From a virus, in IMG/VR virus record IMGVR_UViG_3300023174_000001, positions 32,001 to 96,000 of that record: a DNA stretch of 64,000 nt. One strand, written 5' to 3'. Position 1 is the stretch's first letter. Each line of letters starts with the position of its first letter. The position numbers and the translations under genes were made by a program. The notes under the pieces are model-generated. The model saw only the letters and a program-made list of their open reading frames with translations, did not search any database and had not been told where the DNA came from. Shown one piece after another: positions 21,791 through 59,800 of the stretch.

Positions 21791-21843
21791 ACATCACTCC
21801 ACGCTGGAGCCTCATTAGGTGAAAGCAATGTGGAGTGATATCC

Positions 21844-41277: not shown

Positions 41278-41290
41278 CCCCCATCTAGCA

Positions 41291-41357
41291 ACCAGGTTAC
41301 CCTTTTTTCCATGCAAGTGGATTCCATGCTGACGCATGGAAAAAGAGGGGACCTGGT
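41291..41357. repeat. CCATGC/GCATGG palindrome cassette, copy 1 (others ~45891-45943, 50037-50084, 50815-50880, 52761-52806)
   Basis: TTTTCCWTGC-N-TCCATGC-N3/4-GCATGGAAAA at five loci. Confidence 0.85.
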
Positions 41358-41419
41358 TTTTTGCTTCCTCCCGGCTTCTCATCAGAACTCCTTATGCTTT
41401 TCCGGGGGATACCCTGAAG

Positions 41420-41481
41420 ATTTCGCTCACAGCGAACAAGATAATCTTGACATCCGGGAATGAATCTGGAATGATTGAGTT
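41420..41481 (+). promoter_or_regulatory. ClgR-type box plus SigR/SigH-type promoter
   Basis: TTTCGC-N5-GCGAACA then GGAAT-N17-GTT. Confidence 0.65.
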
Positions 41482-41692
41482 ATAGATAGTATGAACCAAA
41501 TAGAAACACCAGAAAAAAAGATTTCCAAAACCGGGAATAAATCTGGGAGAAGTTTAGTTCTACTTATTACAACTGAATAAAAAGTCAAGGACACGCCAAA
41601 AAAAGTTTTTGAAATGAACTTGACAAGTGTAAGACCCTGTGCTTATACTTTCTAATACCAAATACAAATGCGTCAATTACTAAGGAGACCAA

Positions 41693-42217
41693 GTGAACGC
41701 AAAGACAGAAAAGGACTGTGCTGGCAAGGCACTTTACCTAGAGTTCCGTAAAGAGAACTACACCTACCAAATGATTGCCACTCCACCTGCGATAGATGTG
41801 AATGGCAACTTCATCCCTGCGTGTGCTATGGAGAGAAGACTCTCTTCTTATCACCCACGCAAAAACTGGAACTTTACCAGCGTTCCTGTGAACGACTCAT
41901 TCAAGATTGAGCGTGATGCTAGTGGCGATTTCTCACAGATAGATTTAACATCTGCTGGCGAGATTGGTGCTCTTCACATTCAGCGTTTGTTCGCTCGCAC
42001 CATTGACTCTCTATTCCACAGAGGTTGGACTTTGTTCAAGACACCTGTGGCAGTAGAAGTAACTTACAAGGACTTGGCAACAATCAAGTCTGGTAAGACT
42101 TCCAATGACCTTATTAGACGCATCGAGCGTTCTCGTAAGCACTTTGGATTCCCAGAAGAACTCTTCGACCAACCAGTCGTTGAGCCAACCACTGTCACAC
42201 TGACACCAGTAGTCTAA
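41693..42217 (+). CDS. Hypothetical protein
   Basis: AAGGAG RBS; upstream TTGACA...TATACT promoter. Confidence 0.65.
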   Translation: MNAKTEKDCAGKALYLEFRKENYTYQMIATPPAIDVNGNFIPACAMERRLSSYHPRKNWNFTSVPVNDSFKIERDASGDFSQIDLTSAGEIGALHIQRLFARTIDSLFHRGWTLFKTPVAVEVTYKDLATIKSGKTSNDLIRRIERSRKHFGFPEELFDQPVVEPTTVTLTPVV

Positions 42218-42233
42218 GAATAGGAGACCAATT

Positions 42234-43271
42234 ATGACTACAATCAACCCAACACAAACACCAACCCAGCAAGCAGTTGCTTGGACACGAGACCAAGTTA
42301 GATTGCACCCTAATCTGCCAGAACTACTAAACGCAGTCGTGGGTCAAACTCTAAACTCGGTTTCTGCATCTGACCTTAACCTTGTATTTGACGAGACAAC
42401 TGGTAAAGCAGTTATTCGTAATCGTGATGCAAATCCAGTTAGGAAAATTATGAACGCAGTCGATGCTCTCGCTGGCGAAAGTTTTTACCTGCGACCAAAT
42501 GGTCACAAGTATTACACTCGCTCGTGGGGTCAGCACACTGATGTTGAAGTTGTTCGCAACCAAAGAGCCAGTGAGCGTGGAAAATCAATCCTGCTCTATG
42601 GTGCTCCGGGAACTGGCAAGACTGCTATGTTCGAGGGTGCGTTTGGTGACGACCTAATCACAGTTCTTGGAACTGGCGACACCGAAGTTGGCGACCTAGT
42701 TGGTGGCTATGTTCAAACTGTTGCTGGTGGATTCGAGTGGATTGATGGGCCGCTGGTTCAAGCAGCAGAGCAAGGTAAAGTTTTGCTCATTGACGAGATT
42801 GGTCTAATCGACCCTAAGGTCTTGTCTGTTGTTTATGGACTTATGGATGGTCGTAAAGAACTCAAAGTAACTGCCAACCCTGAACGAGCAATCGTTAAGG
42901 CACAGCCGGGATTCTTTGTGGTTGCTGCGACTAACCCAAATGCTCCGGGAGTAAATCTTTCAGAGGCACTTCTATCTCGCTTTGGTATTCAAGCAGAAAT
43001 GACAACTGACTGGTCGCTTGCTCGTAAGTTAGGCGTTCCAGCACAAGCAGTAACTTGTGCACAGAACCTGTTCAAAAAGCAACAGTCTGACGAGGTCAAC
43101 TGGTCTCCACAGATGCGTGAACTTTTGGACTTCCGTGACATCGCAGAAGACTTGGGAACTGAATGGGCTGTAAGCAATCTAATTGCTCAAGCACCATTCG
43201 AGGACAGAGCGATTGTCGCAGATGTATTTACTCGTGTCTTTGGCACAGAGTTCAAGCCAGCCAAAATCTAG
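42234..43271 (+). CDS. MoxR/CbbQ-type AAA+ ATPase
   Basis: GAPGTGKT, WIDGPL, LLIDEI, ATNP, ALLSRF. Confidence 0.88.
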   Translation: MTTINPTQTPTQQAVAWTRDQVRLHPNLPELLNAVVGQTLNSVSASDLNLVFDETTGKAVIRNRDANPVRKIMNAVDALAGESFYLRPNGHKYYTRSWGQHTDVEVVRNQRASERGKSILLYGAPGTGKTAMFEGAFGDDLITVLGTGDTEVGDLVGGYVQTVAGGFEWIDGPLVQAAEQGKVLLIDEIGLIDPKVLSVVYGLMDGRKELKVTANPERAIVKAQPGFFVVAATNPNAPGVNLSEALLSRFGIQAEMTTDWSLARKLGVPAQAVTCAQNLFKKQQSDEVNWSPQMRELLDFRDIAEDLGTEWAVSNLIAQAPFEDRAIVADVFTRVFGTEFKPAKI

Positions 43272-43425
43272 GTCTCCCAAACAGAGATTTTGGCTAAAGG
43301 GGGGGAGTGGGTCGACAAAATCCCCACTCCCTCTACCCCAAAAAAAGTTTTGAAAAATAGGGAATAATACTTGACTAATGTCAGTTATAACTTATACAAT
43401 GTAGTTATTACACGAAAGGACTCAA

Positions 43426-45294
43426 ATGAGCCACTACAAATTAGATACTAAGCCAGTAGGTCGCACGCACTATGACTGGCTAGGCGTTGGTGCTAGCGTT
43501 GGAAAACTGGTCAACCAGTGGTCGCTACGCAACGACCTAGTTGTTGGTCTGGTCGAAGAGACCACCATTGGTGCACCTGCTTGTTTCAACCCTGCTAGTG
43601 CCGAGATTGAAGTTTGCATCAGCAAAGCATTTGGCAATGGAACTACTGCCAAAGAAGTTGGCGAACTAACTCAACGCAAGAACCAACTAAAGCACGCTGT
43701 TGCGACTGGTGCGATTTATCACGAGGCACTTCACGCTCGTGTTTCACGCTGGTCATTAGAGCAAGCATCCAAAGACCTAACTGCGAGAGAGTGGCGTTTC
43801 CTAAACTCTATGGAAGAGTCTCGTATCGAGTTCTGGGGTTGCAAGTATGTTCCACAGAACAGAACCCTACTTCGTGCTTGTGCGATTGAGATTGTCATTG
43901 GCGACTTGGAATCACACATTGAAAATGTTTCTAAGGTTGATGCCGCTGCGAACCTTGCGTTGCTAACTTTGGCTCGTGTTGATGCTGGCGTTCTAGACGA
44001 GAGAGACATTGTTGACTCTGTTCAGAAAATCCTTACCGAAGTTTTGAGCGAAGAAGTTATTTCTAAGTTGCGTGCTATCTGGAAAGATTTCCAGAACCAC
44101 CAAGACCACGCTAACGCTCTTCCACTTTACGACCTAACTCGTGAGTTCCTAAAAGTTCTAGACGAGCGTAAAGAAGAGACTGGCGAAGAAGAGGGTCAAG
44201 AACCAGAGGGCGAATGTGGCAAGCCGGGTGGAGAGCCGGGCACTGGAACTGGTAAGGGCGAACCTACACCAGAACAGATTAAAGAGTTCAAGGACTTTAT
44301 CGAAAAGGTCAAGGATGCTATCCAAGACATCAAAGAGCAGGTTCAGATTGCTAACCAGACTGAACTAGACGATGAACTCGATGCAGAAGAACGCAAAGAA
44401 GAAGTCGAGGCTCGTGAGCAAAAAGCAAACCAGCAGAAAGAAAACAAGAAAGAATCTAAAAAGGTTTTTGACAACACCTCAACTGATTCTCACATCACCA
44501 CTGCTGGAACTAAATCACGCTTAGTTGAATCTCGTAATCCAACTGGCGATGAAGTTGCTAGTGCTAATCGAATTGCTAACGCTCTGCGTAAAGCAAAGTA
44601 TCGTGAGCGTTCACAGACTCGCATTGGTAGTGTTGTTCCACCGGGTCGCTTGCGTTCTCGTGCTGTCGTTCAAGGTCAAGCACAAAAGGCTCGTGGTATC
44701 TTCACACCAGTCGAGGCTTGGAGAACTACTAAGCGTAAGACCACAGAAGACCCTACGCTGAATGTTGGCATTATGGTTGACATCTCTGGCTCTATGCGAC
44801 CAGCAATGACACCAATGGCTATTACTGCTTGGGTTATGTCAGAGGCTGTTCACAGAGTTCAGGGCAAGTCAGCAATGGTCTACTATGGTCAGGATGTATT
44901 CGCACCACTTAAGCCGGGACAGCGTTTGACTAAGGTCAACACTTTCACAGCACCAGACTCTACCGAAGAGTTTGATAGAGCGTTCAAGGCTCTAGACGGT
45001 GGCTTGGGTATCACTCACGCTGACGGTGCTAAGTTGCTTGTGATTGTTTCTGACGGTCATTACCGACCTGACCAGAAAGCAAAAGCACGCAAGATGCTGA
45101 AAGAGGCTGACCGTAATGGCGTGGCTATTCTGTGGTTGACCTTTGACGGTAAAGTTGCTGAACCGACTGAACTGTTGAGCGGAACTGCTGGCAAGGTTGT
45201 ATCACTGGCGAGCAACGAATCACCGACCAGAGCATCACAGGTTATCGGTGAGACCGCAGCCAAAGTTCTGTCGGCTATCGGTTCAAGGGTCTAA
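43426..45294 (+). CDS. VWA-domain protein (CobT-like) with N-terminal HExxH
   Basis: HEALH, EESRIE, acidic linker, MIDAS DISGS, VSDG. Confidence 0.85.
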   Translation: MSHYKLDTKPVGRTHYDWLGVGASVGKLVNQWSLRNDLVVGLVEETTIGAPACFNPASAEIEVCISKAFGNGTTAKEVGELTQRKNQLKHAVATGAIYHEALHARVSRWSLEQASKDLTAREWRFLNSMEESRIEFWGCKYVPQNRTLLRACAIEIVIGDLESHIENVSKVDAAANLALLTLARVDAGVLDERDIVDSVQKILTEVLSEEVISKLRAIWKDFQNHQDHANALPLYDLTREFLKVLDERKEETGEEEGQEPEGECGKPGGEPGTGTGKGEPTPEQIKEFKDFIEKVKDAIQDIKEQVQIANQTELDDELDAEERKEEVEAREQKANQQKENKKESKKVFDNTSTDSHITTAGTKSRLVESRNPTGDEVASANRIANALRKAKYRERSQTRIGSVVPPGRLRSRAVVQGQAQKARGIFTPVEAWRTTKRKTTEDPTLNVGIMVDISGSMRPAMTPMAITAWVMSEAVHRVQGKSAMVYYGQDVFAPLKPGQRLTKVNTFTAPDSTEEFDRAFKALDGGLGITHADGAKLLVIVSDGHYRPDQKAKARKMLKEADRNGVAILWLTFDGKVAEPTELLSGTAGKVVSLASNESPTRASQVIGETAAKVLSAIGSRV

Positions 45295-45396
45295 CGGCTC
45301 GTGTAGGGGTCGGCTTGCTAAACGGCAAGCCTATCCCTATAATAAATAACGGCAAGCCTAACGGCTCGCCTAAACGACAAAGAGACGGCAAGCGTA

Positions 45397-45837
45397 ATGG
45401 CGTGCCAGATAAGGAGACTCACGGTGGGTCAGTATCACATTTTAGTAAACATAGATAAGCAGGAGTGGGTAGACCCTCACGGCTTAGGTCTAGGCTCAAA
45501 GCAATGGGAGAGTCAGGTTGGTTGCGAGGGTTCGCTATCAGACGCTATGTATGTCCTCACAATGACAAGCCCGGATAGTGGTGGTGGAGATTTACCACGC
45601 ACAGACATTTCAGGTCGCTGGTGTGGAGATAGGGTTTTGATTGTAGGAGACTACACAGGGGCAGATGCAGTTCCAGGATTTACTGGGGCTGACGCTATCT
45701 ACCAACTGGCTACGCAAAGTCCTGATTACAAGAACATAACTGGCGAAGTTCGTGAGGCGTTCTCCAAAATCTTCGAGATTGCTTATGTCCAAGAGAACAT
45801 TGGCAGTCATACATTCTGGAAGAGAACTCTGGTCTAG
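45397..45837 (+). CDS. Hypothetical protein
   Basis: GQYH..VN.DK.E, GRW.GDR...GDY; true start probably GTG near 45424. Confidence 0.6.
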   Translation: MACQIRRLTVGQYHILVNIDKQEWVDPHGLGLGSKQWESQVGCEGSLSDAMYVLTMTSPDSGGGDLPRTDISGRWCGDRVLIVGDYTGADAVPGFTGADAIYQLATQSPDYKNITGEVREAFSKIFEIAYVQENIGSHTFWKRTLV

Positions 45838-45997
45838 CCTCTAAATAAAATAATCCCCTGCGAGTCAGGGGATTTTTTATGCTCGAAAAATAGGGTGTCC
45901 ACTTTTTCCATGCAAGATGGTTTCCATGCTTCGCATGGAAAAACACAAGACCCTAGTGCTTCTTATGCTTTTTCTTCTCCCTCTGGGCTCATCTTCC

Positions 45998-46059
45998 TGT
46001 TCGCTAGGGGCGAACAAGAAACATTGACAATCAGGAATGAAATGCCATACGCTTAGGTT
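45998..46059 (+). promoter_or_regulatory. Perfect ClgR-type palindrome plus promoter
   Basis: TGTTCGC-TAGGG-GCGAACA; TTGACA at 46024; GGAAT-N18-GTT at 46034. Confidence 0.7.
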
Positions 46060-46071
46060 ATAGTTAGAGTA

Positions 46072-46377
46072 ATGACAAAACGATTGGAGACCAAAATGGA
46101 ATACTCAACCCTTTTCCCAACAGTAGTTCTAGTTGCTCGCTCTCAGGGCGAGCGTGGGCAGTATGGTGGCAGAAAGGCATACAAGATTTATGTAAGCAAG
46201 TTTTCAGATAATCGCTGGTGCGTGTTTATGTCTTGGGGCAAAGAAGAAATGCCTAACTCTTGGATGGGCAGTGAAAAGATTTTTGCCACAGAGCAGAGAG
46301 CAGTTCAGTTTGCTTGGGACAAGTTCTACGAGAAGATTGACAAAGGCTACACAGAACGAGTTTTTGAAACTAATTAA
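46072..46377 (+). CDS. WGR-domain-like protein
   Basis: K.Y.I, SWGK, EKIDKGY. Confidence 0.6.
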   Translation: MTKRLETKMEYSTLFPTVVLVARSQGERGQYGGRKAYKIYVSKFSDNRWCVFMSWGKEEMPNSWMGSEKIFATEQRAVQFAWDKFYEKIDKGYTERVFETN

Positions 46378-46457
46378 AAATAAACTTGACATTTGGGAAT
46401 AAATCCTGAATAATCTAGTTATAGTTATTATAGAAGTTCTTTTGAAAGGAGAACAGA

Positions 46458-48613
46458 ATGGCTGAACGATTCACCACTCAGGTAATAAAGGTAAGCACAG
46501 ACGCAGACTACGCTATGTGGATTGCCGAAGATGGCTCTTATGGAATGTCCGACATACTCGTATTTAGAGAAGAAGACTTGGAAGACGAGCACTGGGAGAT
46601 TTTCAATGAACTCGGAGACAACGAGAGATTTGAGTTCGTCAAAGCAGTAATAAACAAAGAAGACCTATCACAATGGAAAGAGCAGGTATAAAAATGAACG
46701 AAGAGTTCAAGTGCCCTACTTGTAGTGGCTACATCCCTAACAACGATAACATTGGTGCTTACGCTGGTGCTATCTCTCGCAAAGACAACAAGACTGAAAT
46801 CTGTTCCGCTTGTGGAATGGATGAGGCTCTTGCTGACTTCAAGCAACATCTCAGAAAAGAATCTGGTATCGCTTGGCAGTCAACTGTTTTGGAAGAAATG
46901 GTTGAGCACCTAGACGACAACGAGATTTCATTACTCGTCAACGCTCTAAATGACGCAGTTGCCGAAATCTGTGAGTCATACGACATCAAGTAAAAACTTA
47001 GGCGTGTTGGGCTTGACAAATGTCAGCCCAGCACCCTATACTAAATAAGTAATAATAAAAGTTCTCTTGAAAGGAGACCTGCCAAATGGCAAACTACTAC
47101 GAATCAGCACGCACCAACTACTTCTTGGTTAAGGACATTGACGCGTTCAAGAAAGAACTTGAAATGGTCAAGTCTCTTGAAGTGTGTGTCGAACACAAGA
47201 ACCTGAAAGATTATGTCTGCTTGCTCGGTGACAGCGAGGGTGGATTTGCTTTCGACTACTATGACGACAGCCTAGAAGATTACATTGAAATCGACTGGGA
47301 GGGTATTTTCAAAAAGCACCTACAAGATGATTCAGTAGCAATCATTATGGGTGCTGGTTCAGAGAAACTCCGTTACATTCGTGGCTACGCCTATGCGTTC
47401 AACAACAAGGGTGAGACCAAGTTCCTCAGCCTAGACGACATCTACGAAATGGCTAAGCCTCTTGGCTCAGACATTCAGAAAGCAGAATACTAAAATGGAA
47501 ACTAAAATCACTAAGCACACTTTCTATCCAGATGGAGAGAATGGCAACATCCCTGATGTTGAGTTAGTCAGCGTTCTAGGAGACGACAGAGACATGAGTG
47601 CTCACTTCCTATGGCGTGGCACTAAGCAATGGCTCGCTATGAGCAAGGACAACCCTTATGGCGATAACCAATGGCTAGTAGTCGAGACTGACTACTCCGA
47701 AGAGTTCCAAGAGTGGCTTGACGAAGAGTTGAGTGGCTATGACAGTTTGGAAACTATGTTTGGCACGATAGATTTTCTGCCTAACGAGTCCTACCTATTT
47801 ATTGTAGAAAGAGCAGGTGTCTAATGACACAGGTAAGCAAAGCAATCGAGTATCTATCTAAGTTAGACCCTAACGAAGAAATAGCGTTTACTGGTTATTG
47901 GGTGAAGAGTGATGTTGAGGAAAACAACAACATCAAACTTACTGACGAACAGTGGGAGACGATTTGTTGGAAACACGAAGACAACATTGAAGTCCACATT
48001 GACGAAATAGTCGAGTTGGTTTTATCACAGGAGGAAACAAATGAGTAAGCAAGTTTATTTCGTAGTTTATTACGACACCGAAGATAAGCAACTTTACCAA
48101 GACACTGGGACTTTATTGGCTCGTTTTGGTGAGGGCTCTATCTGGGACAGCGAAGAAGAAGAGTGGAATCATGAAACAGAAATCTCTGTCTTAGCAGAGG
48201 CTCAGAACGCAATGGACACTGTAATCAGTAATACAGCAGTCTAAGCATTGACAGCGAGAGCCACTTACCCTATACTTGTAGGGTAGGTGGCAATCGCCAT
48301 TTCAAAAAAGAAGTAAAATGATTTAGAAAAGAAAGTTGGTAACTTTATGAAAAAGTTCACAGTAATCGCAGAAATAAACTTCGAGGTTTATGACACTGAC
48401 GAGTTTTCGGCTGAGCGTCAAGGGCGTATTGCCCTAGCACGATTCGTTGGAGACCCTGATGCAAATGGCTACAAAGACGAATACGCAGACTTGCCTACTC
48501 CGTCTATCCATCCAATCAGAGTTAGAGTCGCAGACGAGAATGGAAAGTTCTTGGCTGGCTGGAATCCAGCAGACTTAGACGAGGCTGAACCGAAAGAAAA
48601 AGACGCAGAGTAA
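46458..48613 (+). CDS. Cluster of small acidic hypothetical proteins (46458-46691, 46673-46993, 47086-47493, 47462-47824, 47824-48048, 48041-48244, 48347-48613)
   Basis: Co-oriented ORFs, several with GAAAGGAGA RBS or coupled stops. Confidence 0.6.
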
Positions 48614-48642
48614 TCTGCCCCGAATAGAAAGACAAAAAGACA

Positions 48643-48927
48643 ATGAACCTAGCACAAGCACTCGGTCACACGATTAGAAAAAATCGTCTTGCCAATGGTA
48701 TGACACTCAGAGACCTGAGCGTAAAGTCAAACACTTCACTTGGCTATCTATCTGAGATTGAAAGAGGAACGAAAGAAGTTTCTTCCACAGTCTTGGAGAG
48801 TATTGCTAAGGGATTGGGAACACCTCTCTACACGATTGTCTCAGGCTCGGCTTTGGAGATGATGTATTCATCTACCGAAATCATTGACGAACCCAGCAGA
48901 CACATGGAAAACCTAGTAACCCTATAA
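48643..48927 (+). CDS. clgR: ClgR-like XRE transcriptional regulator
   Basis: TLRDLS...SLGYLSEIERGTKEVSS..L.SI matches the ClgR-type signature SLGYLSE(V/I)ERG.KE.SS. Confidence 0.72.
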   Translation: MNLAQALGHTIRKNRLANGMTLRDLSVKSNTSLGYLSEIERGTKEVSSTVLESIAKGLGTPLYTIVSGSALEMMYSSTEIIDEPSRHMENLVTL

Positions 48928-49179
48928 AAAGCATAAGAAAGACAAAGATGAATACTTTAATGATGTTGTCAAACGAATCGACTGTTGATGTGAACCTACT
49001 CGCTGAGAGTCAGGAACTATTCGACCTAATCAAAAAGAACACCCCTTACAACGAACTTTTGGAGTGGGTGAACGAGAACTTCTAGTTCTCTGTGGGCGAA
49101 CAAAAAAGTTTGGCATTTCGGAATAAAATGTCGTTGTATCGTGTTATAGTTTATGTAGCAAGAAAAACGAAAGTTCCGA

Positions 49180-49560
49180 TTGCTACCTCAGACCAAAAGG
49201 CTCTGGGAAATACATAAAGACGAAGGATGTGGCAAAGTGGCAAAAACACTTACCCCAACTGTAAAAGGCAAGTCAGTCGAACTAGGCTGGTCTGCCGAAG
49301 TTAGACAAGCGTTAGAGAAGTATCGTAACGCCCTAGAAGCGAAGAAGGAAGCAGACAAGGCTAAGGCTGAGGCTGAGGTCATTCTTCGTGAGCAACTCGG
49401 TGACGCTGAGTTCGCTACCATTGGTGGCTCAAAGGCATTCAAGATGTCTCAGGTCATTATGGAAAGAGTGGACAACGCAAAGTTGTTAGCCGAGTTCCCA
49501 GCAGTTCACGCAGAAGTTCTGGTTGACGGTTCTTACGAGTTCATCAAGACCGTAAACTAG
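49180..49560 (+). CDS. Hypothetical protein
   Basis: ORF; start probably a later GTG. Confidence 0.55.
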   Translation: MLPQTKRLWEIHKDEGCGKVAKTLTPTVKGKSVELGWSAEVRQALEKYRNALEAKKEADKAKAEAEVILREQLGDAEFATIGGSKAFKMSQVIMERVDNAKLLAEFPAVHAEVLVDGSYEFIKTVN

Positions 49561-50295
49561 AAACGGCTTGGCTAGCCGTATCACCTGATACCTTAGTGCC
49601 TAAGATACACGGCTAGTCAAAACGGCAAGCCCCTTAACCGATAACGGTTAGGGGGTTTTGCTTTACCCTAACGGCTAGCCCTGCACGGATAAGACGGCAA
49701 GCACAAACGGCAAGCCCCTATACGCAATGACGGCAAGCCTTATGCGTTCTTATGTAATAAGCCCCCGCAGAAGCCAACGGGTCGTCTTTTTTACGCTCTA
49801 TGTATAGACGCACACAAAAACCTGACGGGTCGTGTTTTTAAGAAACAGAAGCAGAGGAGAAGCAGAAGCCAGATGACTGATGACACATGGGGGAAAAGCA
49901 TAAGACCTTATGAAATAAAGCCAGATGGAAGCGAAGATGGAAGGGAGATGGAAGCGAAGGGGGAGAAGTAAAAGCATAAGAAAGCAAAGAACCAAGCAGA
50001 TGAGATAGAAGACGCAAAAAAATGTGGGTGTAAAGATTTTCCTTGCGAGCCTCAGATTTTTTGTCCATGCCTCGCATGGAAAAACAAGGGACTTGACTTT
50101 TTTTGGATTTTGTTTTTTTTGTTTTCTTTTTTTTATTTTGGATTTGGATTTGGATTTTTATTTCTCTTATGTTTTTAATCTTGATTTGTTCCCAGTTATC
50201 GTGTTCGCCCTGAGCAAACAAAAAAGATTGGCACTAGGGAATAAAAACCTTGCTTATCGTGTTATCTTATGTATAGGCACTAAGGAGGTGATTTT

Positions 50296-50451
50296 ATGAA
50301 GTGTAAAGTTTGGTTAGTCGTCAAGTATGACAACTCTATTCCTGCGACCTGCGTGGAGTTTGAGTGGGCAGATTTGGCTGTTGCGACTGCTTTTGTTCAA
50401 TGGTTCAACCTGAACAATAGCGACAGACACGCCTCAATAGAGGCAGAGTAG
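50296..50451 (+). CDS. 51-aa protein (not in ORF track)
   Basis: AAGGAGGTGA RBS; MKCKVWLVVKYD... Confidence 0.6.
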   Translation: MKCKVWLVVKYDNSIPATCVEFEWADLAVATAFVQWFNLNNSDRHASIEAE

Positions 50452-50526
50452 TCCTGAGACCTGAGCAAGTCCTAAAAAGGCTCACACACACATTTCCTGG
50501 GTCCAGGAAACTACATAGGAGACAAA

Positions 50527-51418
50527 GTGAAAAGAAAACTAGAACTGGAAGTCAAAACTGTTGATACCATTTTGGACATTTTAGGTGGATTGCTTCACGC
50601 TGGGATGGAGATGGAAAAGTTTTTGGAAAATGAAGGGCAACCTGTTCCTAAAAAACTTAGAAAACAAAATGCTAGAACTTTGATGGCTCACATGGAACTG
50701 GCAATGGCACTTCGTTCAGTTGAGATTGCTGAACTGGAAGAAGTGTTCGCTCTCGAACAAAACTAAATAAAAAGATTCCACCTCGAAAGAGGTGGGATTT
50801 TTTTATCAAAAAAATAGGGTTAGAGGTTTTTCCATGCGTTCCATGAGTCCATGCCTCGCATGGAAAAAGCGACCACCTGGCTTCGCCCGGCTTCGCCCGG
50901 CTTCGCTTGCTTCTTCTGGTTCTTATGCTTTATCTGGCTGATGAGTTCTCCCTCCCTGTTCGCTGTGAGCAAACAAGAAAGTTTGCTGTATGGGAAGAAA
51001 AAGGGACTGTATTGGGTTATTATTTGTATAGGCACTAAGGAGGTGAAAAATGGAAAACTTACAGACAACAGAGGTGACGCTTACAAGCGACTGCACTTGC
51101 GTTGATGAGGATGGCAACTACATTGAAGAATGTTTTGGTTGCTGGGATGACTCTAAGTATGACTTAGGGGAGTTAGTATCAACTGTTCAGACTGAAAAAG
51201 GCTGGACTCAGGTTGCTGTCGAATACAAGGGAGTTTCATGGCGTAGAGTTTCTGGCGAGTTCTTTATGGACTTCGATACCGAAAACTTGATTCGAGCATT
51301 CTCCCTCAATGGTGACTTCAGATTGGTATTTACCTATACCAATGGAGAGTTATCACTTGTTCGATACTCGCATGATGAGCCAACTGGGACTGGCAAGATT
51401 ATCTTCAAGGCAATCTAG
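50527..51418 (+). CDS. Two hypothetical proteins (50527-50766, 51050-51418)
   Basis: Strong RBS before each. Confidence 0.6.
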
Positions 51419-51540
51419 TCTCCCTAACCTGAGCAAGTTATAAAAAGGCTCAAAAAAACTTTTGGGATTCGGGAATAAAAACTGAGTTCCTAGTGTTATA
51501 GTTATTGTAGTTCGAAAAAAGTTTCTTGAAAGGAGACCCC

Positions 51541-52005
51541 ATGAACAACACCCTAACCCCGGCGAGCGAGCGTCAAATCTCGTTCCTTAACTCTCTACTT
51601 GCTGAGCGTGAGAACACGCTAGTCGTAGAGTTCGCTGGCTTGACTTCTAAGCAAGCCTCAGAGTTCATTGGGACTCTAATCAACGCCCCTAAGCGTGTTG
51701 CTGGTGTTCGTGCCGACTTCCCGGTTTTAGAGGGTATGTATCGCAACAACGCTGGCGTTATCTACAAGGTTCAGGCTAGCCGAGAGACTGGTCGCCTTTA
51801 CGCCAAGTTCCTTGATGTTGCTATGCGTAAGTTCGAGTTCGAGGCTGGTGCAATGCGTAACCTCAGTGCCGAAATGCGTATGAGCGTGGAGGAGGCTAAG
51901 GCGTTCGGTGTCGAATACGGTTTCTGCGTAGTCTGTGGAAAGTTCCTTACCGACCCTGTATCTGTTGCTCAGGGTATCGGCCCGGTCTGTATCACTAAGG
52001 TCTAA
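51541..52005 (+). CDS. DUF6011-like Zn-finger protein
   Basis: ASERQ..F N-terminal motif; CVVCGKFLTDPVSVAQGIGPVC. Confidence 0.75.
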   Translation: MNNTLTPASERQISFLNSLLAERENTLVVEFAGLTSKQASEFIGTLINAPKRVAGVRADFPVLEGMYRNNAGVIYKVQASRETGRLYAKFLDVAMRKFEFEAGAMRNLSAEMRMSVEEAKAFGVEYGFCVVCGKFLTDPVSVAQGIGPVCITKV

Positions 52006-52009
52006 GCCG

Positions 52010-52345
52010 ATACGGTTCACCCCCTAGAAAGCCCTTGCTGGAAACGGCAAGGGTTTTTTAGTATCTGGCACGGCTGGCTTGCTGAACACGGCTGGCAAGA
52101 CTAACGGCTGGCTTGTAGAGACGGCTAGGGTTTGACGGCTGGCAAGGGTAAAGGCTTGCTAAAAGCCAACGGCTAGCCTTTTTGACGGCTTGCTCTAACG
52201 GCTAGCCCCTTAAATGACTAACGGCTCGCCTTTATGACGGCAAGCGTGTAAATAATCAACGGCAAGCCTTATAAGAGTTAAAAAGCCAACGGTGAGCCTT
52301 TTTTGGACTGGTATGTAGGTAAGCGTGAAAAAAGCCAACGGTAAG
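52010..52345 (+). repeat. Dense ACGGCWNGC repeat field
   Basis: About 14 co-oriented copies at short irregular spacing; similar fields ~40580-40750, 45290-45400, 49560-49740. Confidence 0.8.
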
Positions 52346-52349
52346 CCTT

Positions 52350-53280
52350 TTTAATAAAATAATAAAAAGTCGCAAGAGGACTTGCGAAAAAGCATAAGAA
52401 ATGCAAAAAAGCATAAAAAGGCGAAGAAATGCGAAAAAAGAGGCGAAGAAGCGAAGGCGAAGAAAATAAATAAAAGCAAAAAGAGGCGAAGGCGAGGAAA
52501 AATAAAAGCATAAGACACATAGAAAAAATGGATACCTGCAAAAAAAAACTGATGCCTCAGCGAAAAAACCTGATGCCTCAAAAAAAGATTCATGGGAAAT
52601 GAAAGTTTCACTCTGGCGAAAGAAGTTTCAGGCTGGCTGAGGCTGGAAAAGTGCGTCTAGATAGGCTCTGGGAAGCCTATTCAGGCGTGAAAGCGTGAAA
52701 AGTGGGGGAAGGTGCGTAGTTTCAGGAAAAAGCGAAGGGGAGGGAGTCGAAAAGAGGGTGAGGGGTTTTTCCATGCAAGTTTTTAGTCCATGCTTCGCAT
52801 GGAAAACTAGATGACCGGGCTTGCTTCCAGGTAAGCCTCCCATCCAGGATTTCCAGGGCCTGGAGGAAGAAAAAGCATAAGGATAAAGAAAAAAGCGAAG
52901 GAAGCGGCTCATCTCATGTGAAAAAGAAATGAAAAAGAAAGAAGAAAGAAAGAAAAAGCAAAAAGTATAGAAGAACTGATGAGTAAAGTCAAGCGAGTCG
53001 AAAAAAGTTTTCCATCTTGCATGGAAAATAAAGCCGCGTGCTTCACTTTGCGGCACAAGGAAGTTGAGTGGATTCATGTATCCTCAGGTCGAGGAAGAAA
53101 AAGTATAGATAATGTTTTATGTTTGTCAAGTCGATTTGTAAAAAAGTTGATGAGTCCCATGCAACTCTGCTTCTGGAAAATAGGGTAGCCGCATTTTCCA
53201 TGTGCCGCAGTTTGCTTTTTCACTTGACTTTTCCTGCTTCTTGTGTTTTTTCTTATTATAACTTTTTGATAACAGCGTCT
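52350..53280. other. Non-coding purine-skewed low-complexity tract
   Basis: A/G-rich plus strand with AAAAGCATAA, GCGAAG and CTGATGCCTCA repeats. Confidence 0.7.
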
Positions 53281-53347
53281 TCAGTCGGGAATAAATGTTG
53301 GGCTTCATGGGTTATCTATCATGTAGGCACTAAGGGAGGTGATTAGT

Positions 53348-56300
53348 ATGGTCAAGTTCTATTTTATTTTTGATGGCTTCGGTTATCCACTTTGCGAGAA
53401 GCACTCAGGAGGGTTGCTTCTTGGGGTGGATACTCACCTGAGTTGTCATGCTTGCGACAAACTCGATAAGGAGTAGTCGTCAGCGAAGTTGCTCCCCTGA
53501 TTAAGTTCAGGGGGGCAATTTTTTTTGCATGGGCAGGAAAAAAGTTGCCGTGCGTGCATGGAAACTCTTGCCGCCTGGCTTGATGCCGATACATGATGAA
53601 TCGCAATGGGATTTGTGTGCCGAAGATTTTTTTTTGGAACGCCGTTTATTTTCTTTTTCTTTTTTTCTGCAACACGGGAATAATTTGTCACCTGTGAGTG
53701 TTATTATATATGTAGGCACTAAGGAGGTGATTGATATGGCAAAAACTTACAAGATTGGACTTGTGTTTTCTTTCGAACCTGAGGGAGAACACGCCGACAT
53801 CTTCGAGGGCATGGACAAGACCGAGGAACAACTCATCGTGTTAATGAAGAACCTCGTGTGTGAGGACATCGATAGATATGTGAAATACAACGAAGTCTTC
53901 GAAGGTCTTTCAGTAGAAATTATAGAAGAGTAATCTTCGCCGAACCCTCTGGGAATAATTTGTCAGGGGGTTCGGTTAATATCTTTATAGGCACTAAGGG
54001 AGGTGAGAACTATGGAACTAACAGAACTAGAAGCATTAGCAGTAAAGTCTATCTACACCGATTACCACGCTGGAGCAACTAACGCCGATGAAGCGTTGCA
54101 CGCTTTAGAACAACTAATCAATGGCGGGCTAACACCTTGCGACAAGTGTGGCGACAAGATACAGACAGATATCCACGCCGAAGAACTCGGTATGTGCGTT
54201 GATTGCTCTAACGAGTATTTCAGTCATGAAGAGTAGGAACTAACGCCGACTCATCTCAAGACCCTCGAACAGAAATGTTCGGGGGTTTTGTTTTACGCCG
54301 AGAGGCTGAGCCGCTTCCATCACGCATGGAATAAGCGGCTACCCCGGTTCGCCTCCGTGCGAGGAAAAATACTTACGCCGATTGGGAATAAAAGTGAGGC
54401 GATTGTGGTTTATATTAATGAAGGAAGATTGGAGAAAGAAATGTTTGTAGAGAAAAAAGGTGATGCTGAACTAGCAGAACTATTTGCTTTGGGACTTATC
54501 GCCGAACCAGAAGATAATGGAACGCTTGTGTTAGTGCCGTGTGCCGACCCTGTTATGTGTGAGATACACGGAACTTATTGGATTGAGAAAAGAATAAAAA
54601 AAGTCTTGACACCGACCAAGTAAAGTTGTATAGTAGTAGTATGTCAATGAAAGGACACCGATAATGAACCAAGATAAACTAATCGCCGTTTGTGAAAAAC
54701 TCTATGACAAGCGTGGTGCTAGTGCTATTTACGACTACATCAACGCTAATCACCGAGAACTAGATTGGTATTTTTGCCAGCCTTGCGACACCGATACACC
54801 AGCAACTAACCAACTAAAATGCTTAGTTTGTGGAAGTGCCGTGCTTCTAGGGTATCAAGATAAGTTCGCCGAGTTCATGTAATCCAAATCGAACCAAGAC
54901 CTCGTGCTGAAAAGTGCGAGGTTTGGTTTTTAGCAATCCAGGTGCACGGAAAAACAGAACACCCAGGCACTTGACAAAAAGAGTTTCATCAATAACAATA
55001 GAAACAACAACACCGAAAGGAAACAAAATGAACTACGAGTTCTTATTTACAATGTGGGAGTGTATTGGTTGCCGTCTGCTTTACAACGACGAGCAAGACA
55101 AATGCACCAACTGCAAAAACAAGTGCGAGCCAATTAAAATCAAAGGCGTAAGGGCATAAACTCCGTTATCAAAAAGTTATACGGAAATGCTTGACAATGC
55201 CGTTCATTACAATAAACTAGAAGTGTAGTGAAACAACTAACAAGGAGATAAAAATGAAGATTCTTATTGGATTACTAGGTATCTGGTGCTTTTGGAACGC
55301 TTTGCGTATTACCGACCAACTCGGTCATGTAATGGTTTTTGGTGGCGACCAAAGTGTTCTTTGGGCTGGATTAGTTTTATTCTTATCTGGAACTTTTGGC
55401 TGTGTTATTGCCATCTGTGCTGAAAAGAAGTAGCCAACACCGAAAAGTCCCCTCATCTCAGGTGGGGGGATTTTTTCTGCCCATGCCATTTTGGTAGGCG
55501 GCAGGTTTTTCCATGCTCCCGTGTTGGATTTTTTTTTTCGGATACGGGAATAATTTCTCCATCATCGTGGTTGTCTTATGTATGAGCAAAGAAAGGAGAA
55601 ATCCAATGGACACCGACAAGAACAAAACTTGGGAAGAGTGGCTAAATACGCCTGGGAACGCTAAGAAGTTTCTAGAGTGGGTATTTGACCCTAAAGTAGA
55701 TGCCGAACTAGAAGCCCTTGCAAAAGAAACCAACTAAGGAAAGAGAAACTGTGAGAACTAAACTAACTCAGGAAAGAATCACCGAACTGGACAAACTTGA
55801 CCGAATTAGAACTTACGACTTGCTATACCGAGCGATGTCTGTGGGGCTAATTCCGTTTCAGCCGAACCTTAGGCTAAAGCGTATGGTCAGAGTAAAGAAG
55901 TCTGGCAACTAAAAACACCGAAAACATTTTTTACCAAATGGGAATAAAATGTCGGACTAATGTGTTATTATCAGTATGTGAGTAATCACAAAGACAAAAA
56001 GACAAAGGAGATAAAGTGGCTTCATCAGCAACTTACACCGTTACACTAACGACTAACTCTACGAGTTACATTACAACTATCACCACTCCGTCTAGCGACG
56101 AAGAAACTATTTACGAGTTGGCGATAGAACGCATCAAAGAAGAAGATGGCTTTGATTTATCTGGACACCGATTAGTTGATACAACTTACGAAGTATTGGA
56201 AGTGTGGGACTAATAATGAGTGCTACCGATTACAACGACCTAAGCAGACACATTGGACACAAGGTGGAAGTAGTTACTTACGCCGATACTAATGTCGCCA

Positions 56301-57438
56301 TTGAGTGCGAAGAGTGTAGTGAAGTGCTACTGGACTTTGATAAAGAAGTTGAGTGCGAGAACCACACTTGGACTTTACAAATGAATCTTCCGAACATACC
56401 AATTCGCAACTACTGCGAAGAGTGTGGTGCGATAGGAGAAGCCGACCCCGATGATGTAGCAGAACAAATCCGACTATTAGGAGAGAACGAATAATGATGA
56501 ATAACACCGAACTACTTAATTATCTACAAGACAAGGTAGGTGAATTGTTTGAGAACATCAGACATGACGACACCTATGGCGATTTCAGAGATGGTGCTAA
56601 AGATTACCTAATCCAAATCACAGACATAATCGCAGAACTACAAAGGGAGAACCTAAATGAATCAGGAAACTAAAATCAACACCGATAAGTTATCCCCTGA
56701 GTTTTATGTGTGGGAGAACGACTACGAAGAAGTCTGGGCTACTGAGAGTAATCCTTTCTTCGTAATCCGTAATGGCGAGATGCGAATCATCGTCAAGAGT
56801 GCCGATGAATCACAAGAGATAATCAGATACACCGATGCTCTGGAGAAGTTTGGCATCACTACCGATAAAGAACTAGAAGAGTGGTCTGGGAAGAGTGAAG
56901 AACTATTCTCAGTTGGTATGAATCCTTGGTTTGAGATTTGGTCTGTGAAAGACACCGAGTTTTACTCAGAGCCATACTTTGACCTGAAAGAAGCCATCGC
57001 ACAAGCCGAAGTAATGCTTGCCGAGTATCCAACTGGCATCGTAGATTAGTCAGAACTAAAAAGGAAAGCCCATGCTGAAGAGCATGGGTTTTCTTATGTT
57101 ATTCCGAAACACCTGGGTATCCACTTTTTCCGTGTGCCGTGATGGTTGCCTTCATCTGCTAAGTTGTTCTCATGTCAGTATTTCATCAAGCGACCCCCGT
57201 AAAACTCGTAAATGCAGATGAAGAACGCATTTCCTTCATCTATTTCTTATCTGGTGGGGAATACGACAGTAAGTTTGTGCTGGTTTCTTCCGTTATTACA
57301 CCGAATTATGAAGAAACAGCAGTATTCATCTGCAACGACTCAACTGGCGAAGAAGCAGAGTGGGAGAACACATTGGCAAAAATCTATCATGTGGATACAG
57401 AAGAAGTGCTAAACAAGATGGGATACACAACAAAGTAG
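53348..57438 (+). CDS. Array of small hypothetical genes (53348-53476, 53736-53933, 54012-54236, 54441-54623, 54664-54882, 55028-55159, 55254-55433, 55606-55737, 56016-56213, 56204-56494, 56657-57049, 57172-57438)
   Basis: Mostly with their own promoter and strong RBS; many carry CxxC pairs. Confidence 0.6.
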
Positions 57439-57442
57439 CCGC

Positions 57443-58006
57443 TTGACATGGAAAATAATAAGACTTATTATTAGCCGCAAAGAAGAAATGACGAAAGGAA
57501 CTCAGATGGGCACAAATGTTCATGGTCTGAAGCCAAAGCACTCCGTAGGCGAGCAGTTTGGTAGAAATGTTTGGGGCTGGACTCCGTTGATGGGCTACAT
57601 CTCAGCACAGCACAAGAAGTTTGAGAAGTTGTTTGAGAAAAACCGACTCACAGAACTGCAAGCCAACAAAATTGCCGATGCATTATTTGACGACATCGCA
57701 TCTGGCAAGGCCGAAGCATACGCCGATAAGTTTATGAATAAAATCGCTACCCTCCCTGAAGTCCCATGTGAATTTTGCGAGGCCACAGGCATCAGAAAAG
57801 ATGCCGTAGGCATGGAAAAGGGTATGACCCACCTAGTGCTAGACCCCCGCCTCGCTCAACAACTTGGAAGACAGCGTGGGTGGTGCAATGGATGCTTTGG
57901 TTATGGGATGAAGAAGAGTTCCGACAGTGCTTACTATCTAGAACTTACGGATGTAGTGGAATTCGCCGAGTTCTTACGCAACTGTGGTGGAGCAAAAATA
58001 TCTTAA
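57443..58006 (+). CDS. Hypothetical Zn-finger protein (paralog of 58272..58811)
   Basis: RNVWGW, CEFCEATG, CNGCFGYG, EFAEFL..CGG. Confidence 0.65.
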   Translation: MTWKIIRLIISRKEEMTKGTQMGTNVHGLKPKHSVGEQFGRNVWGWTPLMGYISAQHKKFEKLFEKNRLTELQANKIADALFDDIASGKAEAYADKFMNKIATLPEVPCEFCEATGIRKDAVGMEKGMTHLVLDPRLAQQLGRQRGWCNGCFGYGMKKSSDSAYYLELTDVVEFAEFLRNCGGAKIS

Positions 58007-58271
58007 AAAATCTTTTGCGACACGCTTGACAAATGTCAGATGTGTTGTGTAGATTATCTATGTATCCACTCGACAACGAAAGGCAGATACAAATGTACGA
58101 AGACTACGAAGACGAAAAACAGTATGTTAGAGAACTTTACTGGGAGTCAAAAGGTTTGGGCGGTTACGACAGAGTTACCGTAGAGCCGATTGTTTTAGCA
58201 GGAGAAGAAATCTCTTGCCCTAAGTGCAACAGGATAAGAGACAAAGCAATAATCGAACAACACTTGCCTAA

Positions 58272-58811
58272 GTGCAGTGGGACTGGAGAATAAAAATGGG
58301 TATGGATGTTTATGGCACTAAGCCGAAGAACGAAACTGGAGAATACTTCCGCCGTAATGTTTGGGGCTGGAGAGGTCTTTGGGACTACTGCTTAGATACT
58401 TTTGAGATTGCTAACAAAGTAGAAGATGGGCACTCTAATAGTGGAGATGGTCTAAACGCCGAGAACAGCAGACAACTTGCTGAGCAGATGAAAGCAGACA
58501 TAGCAAGTGGTGCCGCTCAGGACTACATCACAGCACGCAATCACAAACTGGCTAGTTTAGAGAGACTCGCTTGCGATACATGTGCTGGCACTGGTATTCG
58601 TACCGATGATGTTGGTGTCTTCCACGATATGCCGACAAGAGAGTTGTCTCCAGAGATGGCATCACTAACTGGTCGCACACACGGATTCTGTAATGCTTGC
58701 TCTGGTGAGGGTAAGACAGACGACTGGGAAACTAACTATCAGTTCGACCTAGAAGACATTAAAGAGTTTGCCGAGTTCGTTGAGAACTCTGGTGGATTTA
58801 GGATTTGCTAA
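58272..58811 (+). CDS. Hypothetical Zn-finger protein
   Basis: MGMDVYG, RNVWGW, CDTCAGTG, CNACSGEG, SGGFRIC. Confidence 0.7.
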   Translation: MQWDWRIKMGMDVYGTKPKNETGEYFRRNVWGWRGLWDYCLDTFEIANKVEDGHSNSGDGLNAENSRQLAEQMKADIASGAAQDYITARNHKLASLERLACDTCAGTGIRTDDVGVFHDMPTRELSPEMASLTGRTHGFCNACSGEGKTDDWETNYQFDLEDIKEFAEFVENSGGFRIC

Positions 58812-58814
58812 AAG

Positions 58815-59075
58815 ATGGAGAATAAAATGAAAGCAAAGACAAAAACAGAAACAAAAATGAATACCGTTGCTTGGGATTGGTTTATCGCAAGATATACCAA
58901 GATGGGCTACAAATCACTCAACCAGTTTGCTATCGCAACTGGACTACAAAAGAGTAGCCTAAGTCGCTACTTTCATCGCCAACGCCAGATGCCGTCAGGC
59001 ATGATGGCAACACTTTGCCGAGAACTCAAAGTAACTCCTAACGAGTTGATGCGAGCCCTTGGGGAGTGGCAATAA
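58815..59075 (+). CDS. XRE/Cro-like HTH protein
   Basis: SLNQFAIATGLQKSSLSRYF...P. Confidence 0.75.
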   Translation: MENKMKAKTKTETKMNTVAWDWFIARYTKMGYKSLNQFAIATGLQKSSLSRYFHRQRQMPSGMMATLCRELKVTPNELMRALGEWQ

Positions 59076-59239
59076 GACCCCGCTATAAGTAGCAAACACC
59101 TGAGGTATGTGTCTAAAATGCCTCTTTTTCTCCATAAACACCGATTTATGGGGTAAAATAGACCTCACAACTGAATATAGTGTCACTTCGACAATAAACG
59201 ACCCCAGTGCTAACTAACAAGGAAAGGTAAGGTCGCTAA

Positions 59240-59800
59240 ATGAAAAAGTATGTATTAAGTGCCAGCATAGTTTTAACTCTCGCTGGTTGTACTGCATCTG
59301 CCTCAATAGCAGATATGCAAACAGCATTAGTAACACCTATTAGTGCCGTAAAAGAAAAACAAACAGCATCTAAAGAAGTATCAGTTACTCACTCTCTAAT
59401 CAAAGAGGCTAAGAGTAGGCGTAATACCGTTAGGATGCAAAAACTAATAAAGTATCTGAAGACCCGTGTAAATAGGACTTCCTATGTGTTTTCAGGTTCC
59501 AGTCCCCGTGGGTGGGACTGCTCAGGTATGGTTCGATGGACTTACGAGCAATTTGGTTTAGAAATACCACACTCCGCTAATAAGCAAGCACACATAGGAC
59601 AAAGAGTGTCTAAACCAAAACAGGGAGATATCGTTGTATTCGCATACAAAGGCTCCACCTCTTTCTACCACTCCGCCATCTATATTGGAAATGGCAAAAT
59701 TATCAACGCACATTACGAGGCTGACTCCACGATTATTCAGCCACTTACCGACTACAAAAGTAGTCAGATAAGGTTCGTAAGGTTAGTGCCCACCATGTAA
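59240..59800 (+). CDS. NlpC/P60 (C40) peptidase with signal/lipobox
   Basis: LAGC lipobox-like, YVFSG, DCSG, GDIV, HSAIYIGNG. Confidence 0.9.
   Translation: MKKYVLSASIVLTLAGCTASASIADMQTALVTPISAVKEKQTASKEVSVTHSLIKEAKSRRNTVRMQKLIKYLKTRVNRTSYVFSGSSPRGWDCSGMVRWTYEQFGLEIPHSANKQAHIGQRVSKPKQGDIVVFAYKGSTSFYHSAIYIGNGKIINAHYEADSTIIQPLTDYKSSQIRFVRLVPTM

Follow-up and report, generated by a model that had tools for sequence, protein, structure and literature searches.

The DNA analysed here (the window) is a stretch of 64,000 nucleotides from a phage genome, IMG/VR record IMGVR_UViG_3300023174_000001, of which it covers bases 32001–96000. The record is 135,069 bp long, has direct terminal repeats, is rated complete and has a GC content of 43% over its whole length. 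A crude gene map of the whole record places large structural genes at 0–32 kb, a mixed-strand replication region at 33–72 kb and a block of small plus-strand genes at 73–96 kb (41–64 kb of the window), followed by giant open reading frames (ORFs). The likely host of this lytic-type phage is a low-GC freshwater actinobacterium of a Nanopelagicales-type order, called the host order below. Our subject is three kinds of element, all of which sit in the small-gene block: five palindromic boxes resembling the operator of the actinobacterial activator ClgR, twelve promoter-like units of the form GGAAT...GTTAT, and the gene of a small ClgR-like regulator. Positions refer to the window unless the record is named.

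41420–41438: box 1, ATTTCGC-N5-GCGAACA, 2 mismatches; orthologous boxes in the related viral contigs L003, L004, L005 and L010
41457–41483, plus strand: SigH/SigR-type unit, boxed (box 1), GGAAT-N17-GTTAT
41620–41649, plus strand: sigma-A-like promoter after boxed unit 1
43361–43388, plus strand: SigH-type unit, box-less, pattern match
45998–46016: box 2, TGTTCGC-N5-GCGAACA, perfect palindrome, 0 mismatches; conserved in viral contigs L003–L011
46034–46061, plus strand: SigH-type unit, boxed (box 2), ahead of 46072–46377
46396–46422, plus strand: SigH-type unit, box-less, at the head of gene string 46458...48927, whose last gene is that of the regulator
48248–48276, plus strand: sigma-A-like promoter, TTGACA-N17-TATACT, ahead of 48347–48613 and the regulator
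48643–48927, plus strand: ClgR-like XRE regulator P0001, 94 aa, open frame, C-terminus ...NLVTL
49084–49102: box 3, AGTTCTC-N5-GCGAACA, 2 mismatches, 157 nt past the regulator stop codon
49120–49147, plus strand: SigH-type unit, boxed (box 3), ahead of 49180–49560
50202–50220: box 4, TGTTCGC-N5-GCAAACA, 0 mismatches to the pattern
50238–50265, plus strand: SigH-type unit, boxed (box 4), ahead of 50296–50451 and 50527–50766
50957–50975: box 5, TGTTCGC-N5-GCAAACA, 0 mismatches to the pattern
50993–51020, plus strand: SigH-type unit, boxed (box 5), with a GGAAG −35 as in host clpP1, ahead of 51050–51418
51472–51499, plus strand: SigH-type unit, box-less, pattern match
53288–53315, plus strand: SigH-type unit, box-less, pattern match
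53677–53704, plus strand: SigH-type unit, box-less, pattern match
55941–55968, plus strand: SigH-type unit, box-less, pattern match
59890–59917, plus strand: SigH-type unit, box-less, pattern match

A search for TGTTCGC-N5-GCRAACA with at most two mismatches gave 11 strand-matches where 0.87 were expected (100 shuffles; the largest count was 4 and none reached 11). Ten of them are the five palindromic sites, each counted on both strands, and the eleventh is a 2-mismatch site at 1187, inside a WhiB reading frame, which is treated as chance; besides these six, no site with two or fewer mismatches was found in the whole genome. All five boxes fall within 9.6 kb, three of them exact and two with 2 mismatches. 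From the end of the box it is 7–8 nt to a TTG(A/G)CA or TTGCTG hexamer in each of the five, and 18 nt (at 41420) or 17 nt (at the other four) to GGAAT/G. Measured from its centre, the box is 27 bp upstream of GGAAT, or at approximately −62 if GGAAT is placed at −35 with an assumed start position, which would be typical of an upstream activator. In form the boxes match the published ClgR operator, CGC-N5-GCG or GTTCGC-N5-GCG. The available excerpts of that work describe ClgR as an activator binding this sequence (GTTCGC-N5-GCG in Streptomyces lividans) upstream of clpP1P2 and clpC, and report that mutating the ClgR motif in Mycobacterium tuberculosis cut promoter activity 3.4-fold. An earlier, sequence-only note on this DNA (the original prediction) had listed the palindromes at 41420, 45998, 49084, 50202 and 50957 with a fixed spacing of 7–8 to a TTG hexamer and 17–18 to GGAA(T/G); both claims were confirmed, the spacing in 5/5. 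Its reading of them as ClgR-type operators by Streptomyces precedent holds for the form of the box, but the likely host is not Streptomyces.

The promoter-like pattern GGAAT-N17/18-GTTAT gave 11 matches, all on the plus strand, against 0.41 expected, and adding the GGAAG unit at 50993 brings the number to 12, all plus and spanning 41457–59917. Five of the 12 are boxed and seven box-less, with a clean split between them (at most one mismatch to the 17-nt core in the five, at least six in the seven). According to the accessible parts of the published work, the SigH/SigR consensus is gGGAATA (−35 GGAA(T/C)A), 16–19 nt and a −10 of (C/T)GTT, which the 12 phage units fit (GGAAT/G-N17/18-GTTAT; GGAATA-N16-TGTTAT). 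Promoters of the extracytoplasmic function (ECF) class had been predicted behind the five boxes, where the fit bears them out, but the seven box-less units had been missed. The GGAAG variant of the −35 occurred in 6/24 boxed and 1/22 box-less units (five loci; the units are orthologous and not independent). GGAAG would be a weaker −35, and its bias towards boxed units and host clpP1 fits dependence on an activator. Overall, the count of sigma-70-like matches was not above shuffles, and only the 11-of-12 matches are relied on here. Sigma-A-type promoters (TTGACA-N17/18-TATACT, plus strand) were seen at 41620, 47013, 48248 and 54606, and the one at 48248–48276 is kept at the same place in 3/3 relatives checked (L003, L005, L010).

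Four of the units (leaders at 50266–50295, 51021–51049, 53316–53345 and 53705–53735) run into the start codon through a near-identical leader, TGTA(T)AGGCACTAAGGAGGTGA. By its sequence the shared leader looks to be a repeated cassette of 5′ untranslated region and ribosome-binding site; we take it to recall the start-associated sequences of some mycobacteriophages.

Palindromes with 7-bp stems and 5-nt loops might instead work as hairpins, as promoters of an N4-type virion RNA polymerase or as terminators, in a genome that also encodes giant proteins (2823 and 4227 aa) without an assigned function. The giant ORFs lie outside the window:

Record 103432–111903: giant ORF of 2823 aa, no PHROG match
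Record 112534–125217: giant ORF of 4227 aa, one PHROG, function unknown
Record 127304–132166: giant ORF of 1620 aa, portal/MuF-type fusion

None of these PHROG matches is to a family of RNA polymerases, and a virion RNA polymerase of the N4 kind was rejected as a candidate. The half-sites of the boxes are kept as sequence, without compensatory change; boxes 4 and 5 retain GCAAACA, which breaks the hairpin pairing; and no T-run follows the palindromes on either strand. For these three reasons the boxes are read as protein operators, the pattern of conservation being, to judge from the alignments, that of a dimeric protein's operator and not that of a hairpin. The host, moreover, has a matching box at clpP1 (see below), and we regard a hairpin role as extremely improbable.

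The regulator matched HTH_3 at 6.8e-11. Its best NCBIfam family was ClgR (NF041677, an equivalog model) with 63.9 bits and an E-value of 1.3e-17, the next family scoring 43.6, and a search of solved structures with the phage protein alone placed two ClgR entries on top (48.2 and 47.0 bits). Next came restriction-modification (R-M) controller proteins, at no more than 32.3 bits. These controllers, and phage XRE activators, are likewise XRE proteins of small size that work as dimers on palindromic sites ahead of promoters, and the accessible text of one paper (PMC10432266) says that the controllers resemble ClgR structurally; they differ in scoring at most 32.3 against 48.2 bits for ClgR and in having neither the ClgR signature segment nor its operator. 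That segment, SLGYLSEIERG.KE.SS, is invariant across 20 homologues that range from phage to cellular ClgR-like proteins. In a quick maximum-likelihood tree (99 sequences, few columns, unrooted) the regulator fell in a clade of 14 viral rows, outside the host-order clade (Shimodaira–Hasegawa-like approximate likelihood-ratio support 97, stem length 0.99); the tree indicates a separation of viral from host-order ClgR and no more. The profile search and phylogeny that the original prediction had called for did not group the protein with generic XRE repressors, and its ClgR homologue therefore stands as to best family and structure match, but with a score under the family cut-off, a place in a separate viral clade and no terminal Ala-Ala. 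On this evidence we call the protein ClgR-like, with ClgR its closest family; it is not a host clgR copied recently, and we do not class it as an equivalog.

Its gene sits in a string of small phage genes and not next to cinA, while host-order clgR follows a cinA-like frame, which we take to be cinA from its C-terminal sequence (unscored). The two lineages also part at the C-terminus. Ala-Ala ends 12/12 host-order ClgRs and 0/5 proteins of the phage sub-clade; across all homologues 39/78 cellular proteins have it and 26/27 viral ones lack it. In S. lividans two C-terminal alanines mark ClgR for ClpP-dependent degradation, according to the accessible part of a review, and because the phage regulator is without this degron we infer that it would escape Clp-dependent control of its turnover.

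The closest cellular proteins to the regulator (51% and 45%) are encoded at L033 2859–3071 and L057 1278–1490, both contigs of cellular metagenome-assembled genomes (MAGs). They pair in the tree, share an N-terminal extension (THTVKIA.PSAT..YG.K) and have no cinA-like neighbour; in L033, GGAATAAGTCACCAACGAGAAGGGTT lies 132 nt upstream of the ClgR-like gene. They could be another ClgR-like paralogue, or a copy carried by a mobile element. Among viruses, the ClgR-like genes of L024, L028 and L027 stand on long branches beside the host-order ClgR clade instead of in the main clade of viral genes, a placement suggesting that they were captured separately and more recently.

The phage units have a clear counterpart in the host order. 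All 31 clpP1 upstream regions (31/31 loci) hold a box with an invariant GCGAACA end, just past the preceding gene, and this half-site is common to the phage and host boxes; box 3 most resembles the clpP1 box of host genome G004. A full GGAAG-N17/18-GTT follows in 27/31 loci, 18, 23, 27, 32 or 33 nt beyond the box, and in the other four rows the examined region ends at GGGAAGCATTT... (two) or GGGA (two). The phage-like 18-nt spacing was found at clpP1 of G034 and G038, small genomes whose loci have 41–45% GC. A loose box pattern gave 3–11 matches in each of five complete host genomes, against 2–7 in controls, and in each of the five the clpP1 site was the only one where a box is followed by a promoter. 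Host ClgR was found in every host genome examined, with no box within 260 nt upstream of clgR in 11 loci. Because the clpP1 match is the only host box that precedes a promoter, the phage units appear to be copies, in design, of the host clpP1P2 promoter, present five times in the phage and about once per host. Both designs run from a GCGAACA-ending box into GGAAG/T-N17/18-(T)GTT, with 18-nt spacing in two host genomes. They differ in that the host has, by the pattern used, one unit per genome, with a degenerate left half-site and a spacing of 18–33 nt, whereas the five phage boxes are near-perfect palindromes.

We then considered which sigma factor could read the units. In the phage, no Sigma70_r2, sigma70-ECF model or Sigma70_r4_2 scored above cut-off. 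One further ORF bears on the question:

Record 95814–96485 (window 63814 to past the end; locus L113 1300–1971): 223-aa protein with a region-4-type helix-turn-helix (HTH), 26.2 bits, residues 80–100

Its region-4-type HTH is 21 residues long, with a second HTH-like stretch near the C-terminus and no region 2, and it was not counted as a sigma factor on the strength of this short HTH. SigH, in turn, was above the NCBIfam TIGR02947 cut-off in 41/41 host-order genomes. Each of six host genomes has 3–4 sigma-70-family genes, with SigH the only small-frame one in 4/6, and the excerpts available of published work give two to four sigma factors per genome for the host order. Since the units fit its consensus, the phage has no detectable sigma factor, and the host order has few sigma factors and SigH universally, host SigH is on present evidence the likeliest reader of the phage units. 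With none detectable in the phage, the circuit would depend on a host sigma factor, and the "self-contained" circuit of the original prediction falls.

Alternatively, the reader of the GGAAT...GTTAT units could be sigma A, or else a phage factor that escaped recognition. The −10 region GTTATnnT does contain a sigma-A-type TAnnnT hexamer with a TTGACA-like hexamer upstream of it, but the two are about 29 nt apart, too far for sigma A, and GGAAT is the most conserved element of the unit. For a phage factor there are the 223-aa ORF with its short HTH and the precedent that the only cultured phages of the host order carry their own sigma factor (as far as the accessible part of that paper goes), but no region 2 is detectable in this phage, and the occurrence of this motif before host clpP1 argues that a host factor reads it. 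The scarcity of a motif for sigH autoregulation in the hosts (3/31) would also suit this alternative, which on balance we consider unlikely. In loci L141, L220 and L233 (sub-lineage G004, G030, G045), GGAATAAA-N13-TTGTTCAA lies at −125 to −145 of sigH, and these three genomes also have the 27-nt box spacing at clpP1. A strict SigH motif gave 2–6 matches per genome in five hosts against 0–6 in controls, too few to define a host regulon.

Relatives of the regulator are encoded in 30 viral contigs. In L003–L011, where the regulator is 60–100% identical (four lineages counting the window), the box-plus-promoter arrangement recurs at 3–5 syntenic places each. Across 17 aligned units from the four lineages, the half-sites, the TTG, GGAAT, GTTAT and a T three bases on are conserved, GGAAT most of all, and the 5-nt box spacer and the flanks vary; this pattern indicates that boxes and promoter elements are under selection. 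No box-plus-promoter units were found in the flanks of the more distant viral loci L012–L028. Several of these instead carry a different repeated intergenic motif, ACGGCTCGCC... (L013 at about 5860–5900, L017 at about 6800–6840, L012/L014 at about 12200–12500), which sometimes precedes TTGACA-N17-TATAAT-like promoters, and they appear to use another operator system. In most phages that have a ClgR-like gene, to judge from distant genomes without canonical boxes, the protein cannot have a group of boxes in the phage itself as its target. Because distant phages carry the gene without boxes, an older role of the phage protein may have been on the host operator, with the boxes of the sub-clade a later recruitment.

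That distribution bears on two further explanations. In one, the boxes serve host ClgR only and let the phage sense proteolytic load, the phage protein finding its targets in host DNA or at a site that has diverged. The match of the boxes to the host clpP1 operator, the presence of ClgR in every host genome examined and the distant phages with the gene and no boxes would all agree with it, but boxes and gene co-occur in all four sub-clade lineages, box 3 begins only 157 nt from the gene, and with an identical recognition segment the phage protein can hardly avoid the boxes. We think this quite unlikely. In the other, the phage protein is a competitor: host ClgR, already there at infection, would activate the boxed promoters, and the stable phage protein would then displace it, shutting these operons down and lowering host clpP1P2. 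The protein shares its recognition segment with host ClgR while its last ~25 residues differ and lack Ala-Ala, it stands on a long separate branch, and a host-operator role would suit the distant phages without boxes of their own; the phage boxes, being better palindromes than those at host clpP1, could capture host ClgR. However, with its centre some 27 bp ahead of the −35 element, the operator is in a poor place to repress; the literature accessible to us describes all ClgRs studied as activators; and a competitor has no need for five high-affinity sites before its own genes. A competing role is in our view rather unlikely, if worth bearing in mind.

The reading we prefer is that the phage uses a multiplied copy of the host clpP1P2 control module, with its own ClgR-like protein and host SigH, and we put its probability at roughly 0.55. 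The elements, their spacing and conservation, the family likeness and the host template are observed; that the protein binds, whether it raises or lowers transcription, which sigma factor serves and when the units are active are inferred from them. The twelve operons of the small-gene block that start at SigH/SigR-class promoters would most likely be read by the host SigH holoenzyme. Since a conserved sigma-A-like promoter (48248) stands directly ahead of it, the regulator would be made early, the housekeeping enzyme transcribing it at once. Its dimer would most likely bind the five boxes and activate transcription from this upstream position, in the manner of ClgR at clp genes. Positive feedback could arise, the regulator gene being downstream of the 46396 unit and, with no terminator predicted between them, of the boxed 46034 unit. 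Without Ala-Ala the regulator would remain active irrespective of what state the host protease is in, and it could also occupy the host clpP1P2 operator.

Several observations weigh against this reading. Seven of the 12 promoter units carry no box. The regulator's 63.9 bits are below the curated ClgR cut-off of 170 bits (cellular-looking metagenomic ClgR-like proteins also fall under it, at 89–113 bits), its identity to host-order ClgR is 33–38% overall and 49–56% in the HTH core, and its all-viral clade sits on a long stem, such that specificity or activating ability may have changed. Six distant phage genomes carry a ClgR-like gene with an identical recognition segment, yet the canonical box was absent from 5/6 of their whole records, and the one match in the sixth equals the control. 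In the five hosts the full palindrome was not enriched (0, 1, 12, 4 and 2 matches against 0, 6, 9, 1 and 7 for the reversed pattern). The −10 region with its TAnnnT hexamer and the finding of the motif upstream of host sigH in only 3/31 loci, plus one weak match, count against SigH, and one RNA-library contig that crosses box 3 gives, like the others, no transcription start. A more far-reaching version, in which a sigma-less family of ~135 kb phages of the most abundant freshwater actinobacteria combines a small-gene block run by SigH as the host's single stress sigma factor, a five-fold module and a degron-less ClgR that evades Clp-dependent turnover and seizes control of the essential host Clp protease, is put forward as tentative and less likely than not.

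Upstream of the boxes, conserved CCATGC-N4-GCATGG and CTTATGCTTTT fold as long hairpins followed by a U-rich tail:

41290–41410, plus strand: terminator-like hairpin, core CCATGC-N4-GCATGG at 41324, U-rich tail including CUUAUGCUUUU; z −5.18
45880–45990, plus strand: terminator-like hairpin and U-rich tail, upstream of box 2; z −3.04
50815–50945, plus strand: terminator-like hairpin, upstream of box 5; z −1.31, no better than shuffles

The fold z-scores were −5.2, −3.0, −3.05 and −5.6 in 4/6 hairpins, and the other 2/6 were no better than shuffles. We read the hairpins as putative terminators of the preceding operons, and the boxed promoters would therefore mostly start insulated units. No terminator was predicted between the boxed unit at 46034 and the box-less unit at 46396, and transcription from 46034 probably reads on towards the regulator.

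The served genes mostly encode small acidic proteins without a known family, the exception being an ATPase behind box 1. The genes after box 1 (41693–45837, plus strand) encode proteins of 174 aa (unknown), 345 aa (AAA_5 ATPase), 622 aa (unknown) and 146 aa (unknown). Between 49560 and 50200 there are 640 bp without a convincing plus-strand gene; T is very frequent in this stretch, GGATTT is repeated and long runs of T stand just before box 4, and 50100–50170 within it is flagged as repeat. Further genes of the block and of the rest of the window are:

1083–1280, plus strand: WhiB-family gene 1, 60.2 bits, above the Pfam cut-off
19213–19410, plus strand: WhiB-family gene 2, 49.1 bits, above the Pfam cut-off
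20691–21038: tmRNA (RNA gene)
21618–21795, plus strand: manA RNA motif (Rfam), 59.1 bits against a gathering threshold of 55.2
21844–21914: tRNA-Gly (RNA gene)
25210–25485: GroES, Cpn10 112 bits
42234–43271, plus strand: AAA_5 ATPase, 345 aa, after box 1
51526–52005, plus strand: DUF6011 protein, in the small-gene block under a box-less promoter
59240–59800, plus strand: NlpC/P60 peptidase, 74.7 bits, in the small-gene block under a box-less promoter
62355–63350, plus strand: Hist_deacetyl family protein, 156 bits

The tmRNA and GroES named in the original prediction are both real; the manA motif stands between the tmRNA and tRNA-Gly. The histone-deacetylase-family protein has DWDVNAGDG at the signature position, where we take the family signature to be D-x-D-x-H-H-G-D-G.

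Parts of the small-gene block, or of close relatives' blocks, occur as contigs in freshwater RNA libraries. Of the sampled words, 6–21% were present in public RNA runs (two freshwater metatranscriptomes, one wastewater and one unlabelled), and contigs from these runs cover parts of the block at 90% likeness; they carry no starts, ends or strand.

As to the host, the cellular relatives closest to the regulator are all Actinomycetota, with freshwater MAGs and Ca. Planktophila among the best; the host order, source of the 31 clpP1 regions, is the one to which these Planktophila genomes belong. WhiB is called an actinophage indicator in the accessible part of a paper on cultured Ca. Planktophila phages. 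The tmRNA was tried as a guide to host lineage and rejected, its identity to all 11 host tmRNAs being 46–53% with no lineage singled out; its tag is closest to the Planktophila type, whereas the box spacing is closest to G034/G038. No near-identical phage was found among GenBank phage records. The cultured Ca. Planktophila phages (39 kb), as described in what is accessible of that paper, share with this phage the host order, a GC content that is ~44–45% in the cultured phages, and a whiB gene, and differ in carrying their own ECF-type sigma-70 factor, where the 135 kb phage has none detectable.

Among known systems, the closest is actinobacterial ClgR itself (Streptomyces, Corynebacterium, Mycobacterium, Bifidobacterium). 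Alike are the small XRE protein with its SLGYLSE(I/V)ERG.KE.SS segment, the CGC-N5-GCG core upstream of a promoter and, in the published excerpts available, the link to SigH-type promoters. The phage protein differs in being phage-encoded, away from cinA, below the family cut-off, in a viral clade and without Ala-Ala, and what it appears to target is not protease genes but phage genes whose function is unknown. The actinophage WhiB and Lsr2 proteins, as far as the accessible literature describes them, are likewise members of host regulator families that phages have copied and put to use in their own programme; here, in contrast, the phage also has recognisable cognate operators, which correspond to a defined promoter of the host. 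The word ClgR is absent from the available text of a survey of actinophage regulators (WhiB, Lsr2; PMC8612146), and a literature search, mainly at abstract level, found neither a phage-encoded ClgR nor a phage promoter design combining ClgR with SigH. ClgR, its operator and SigH-type promoters are known; within the literature so covered, their capture and multiplication by a phage are not.

Because the phage carries its own version of ClgR and five copies of the host Clp promoter design before its own small genes, part of its programme probably passes through the protein-quality-control circuit of the host, whose core in actinobacteria consists of ClgR, SigH and the Clp protease. If true, a phage with a copy of the host clpP1P2 control module and a ClgR of its own, probably resistant to the protease, would plainly exemplify a virus that taps a stress regulon rather than replacing the transcription machinery, and ClgR would join WhiB and Lsr2 among the few host-type regulators known in actinophages. 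The finding also supplies testable promoter and operator sequences for the Nanopelagicales, in which transcription is almost unstudied, and predicts a ClgR operator and a SigH-type promoter at clpP1P2 across the host order.

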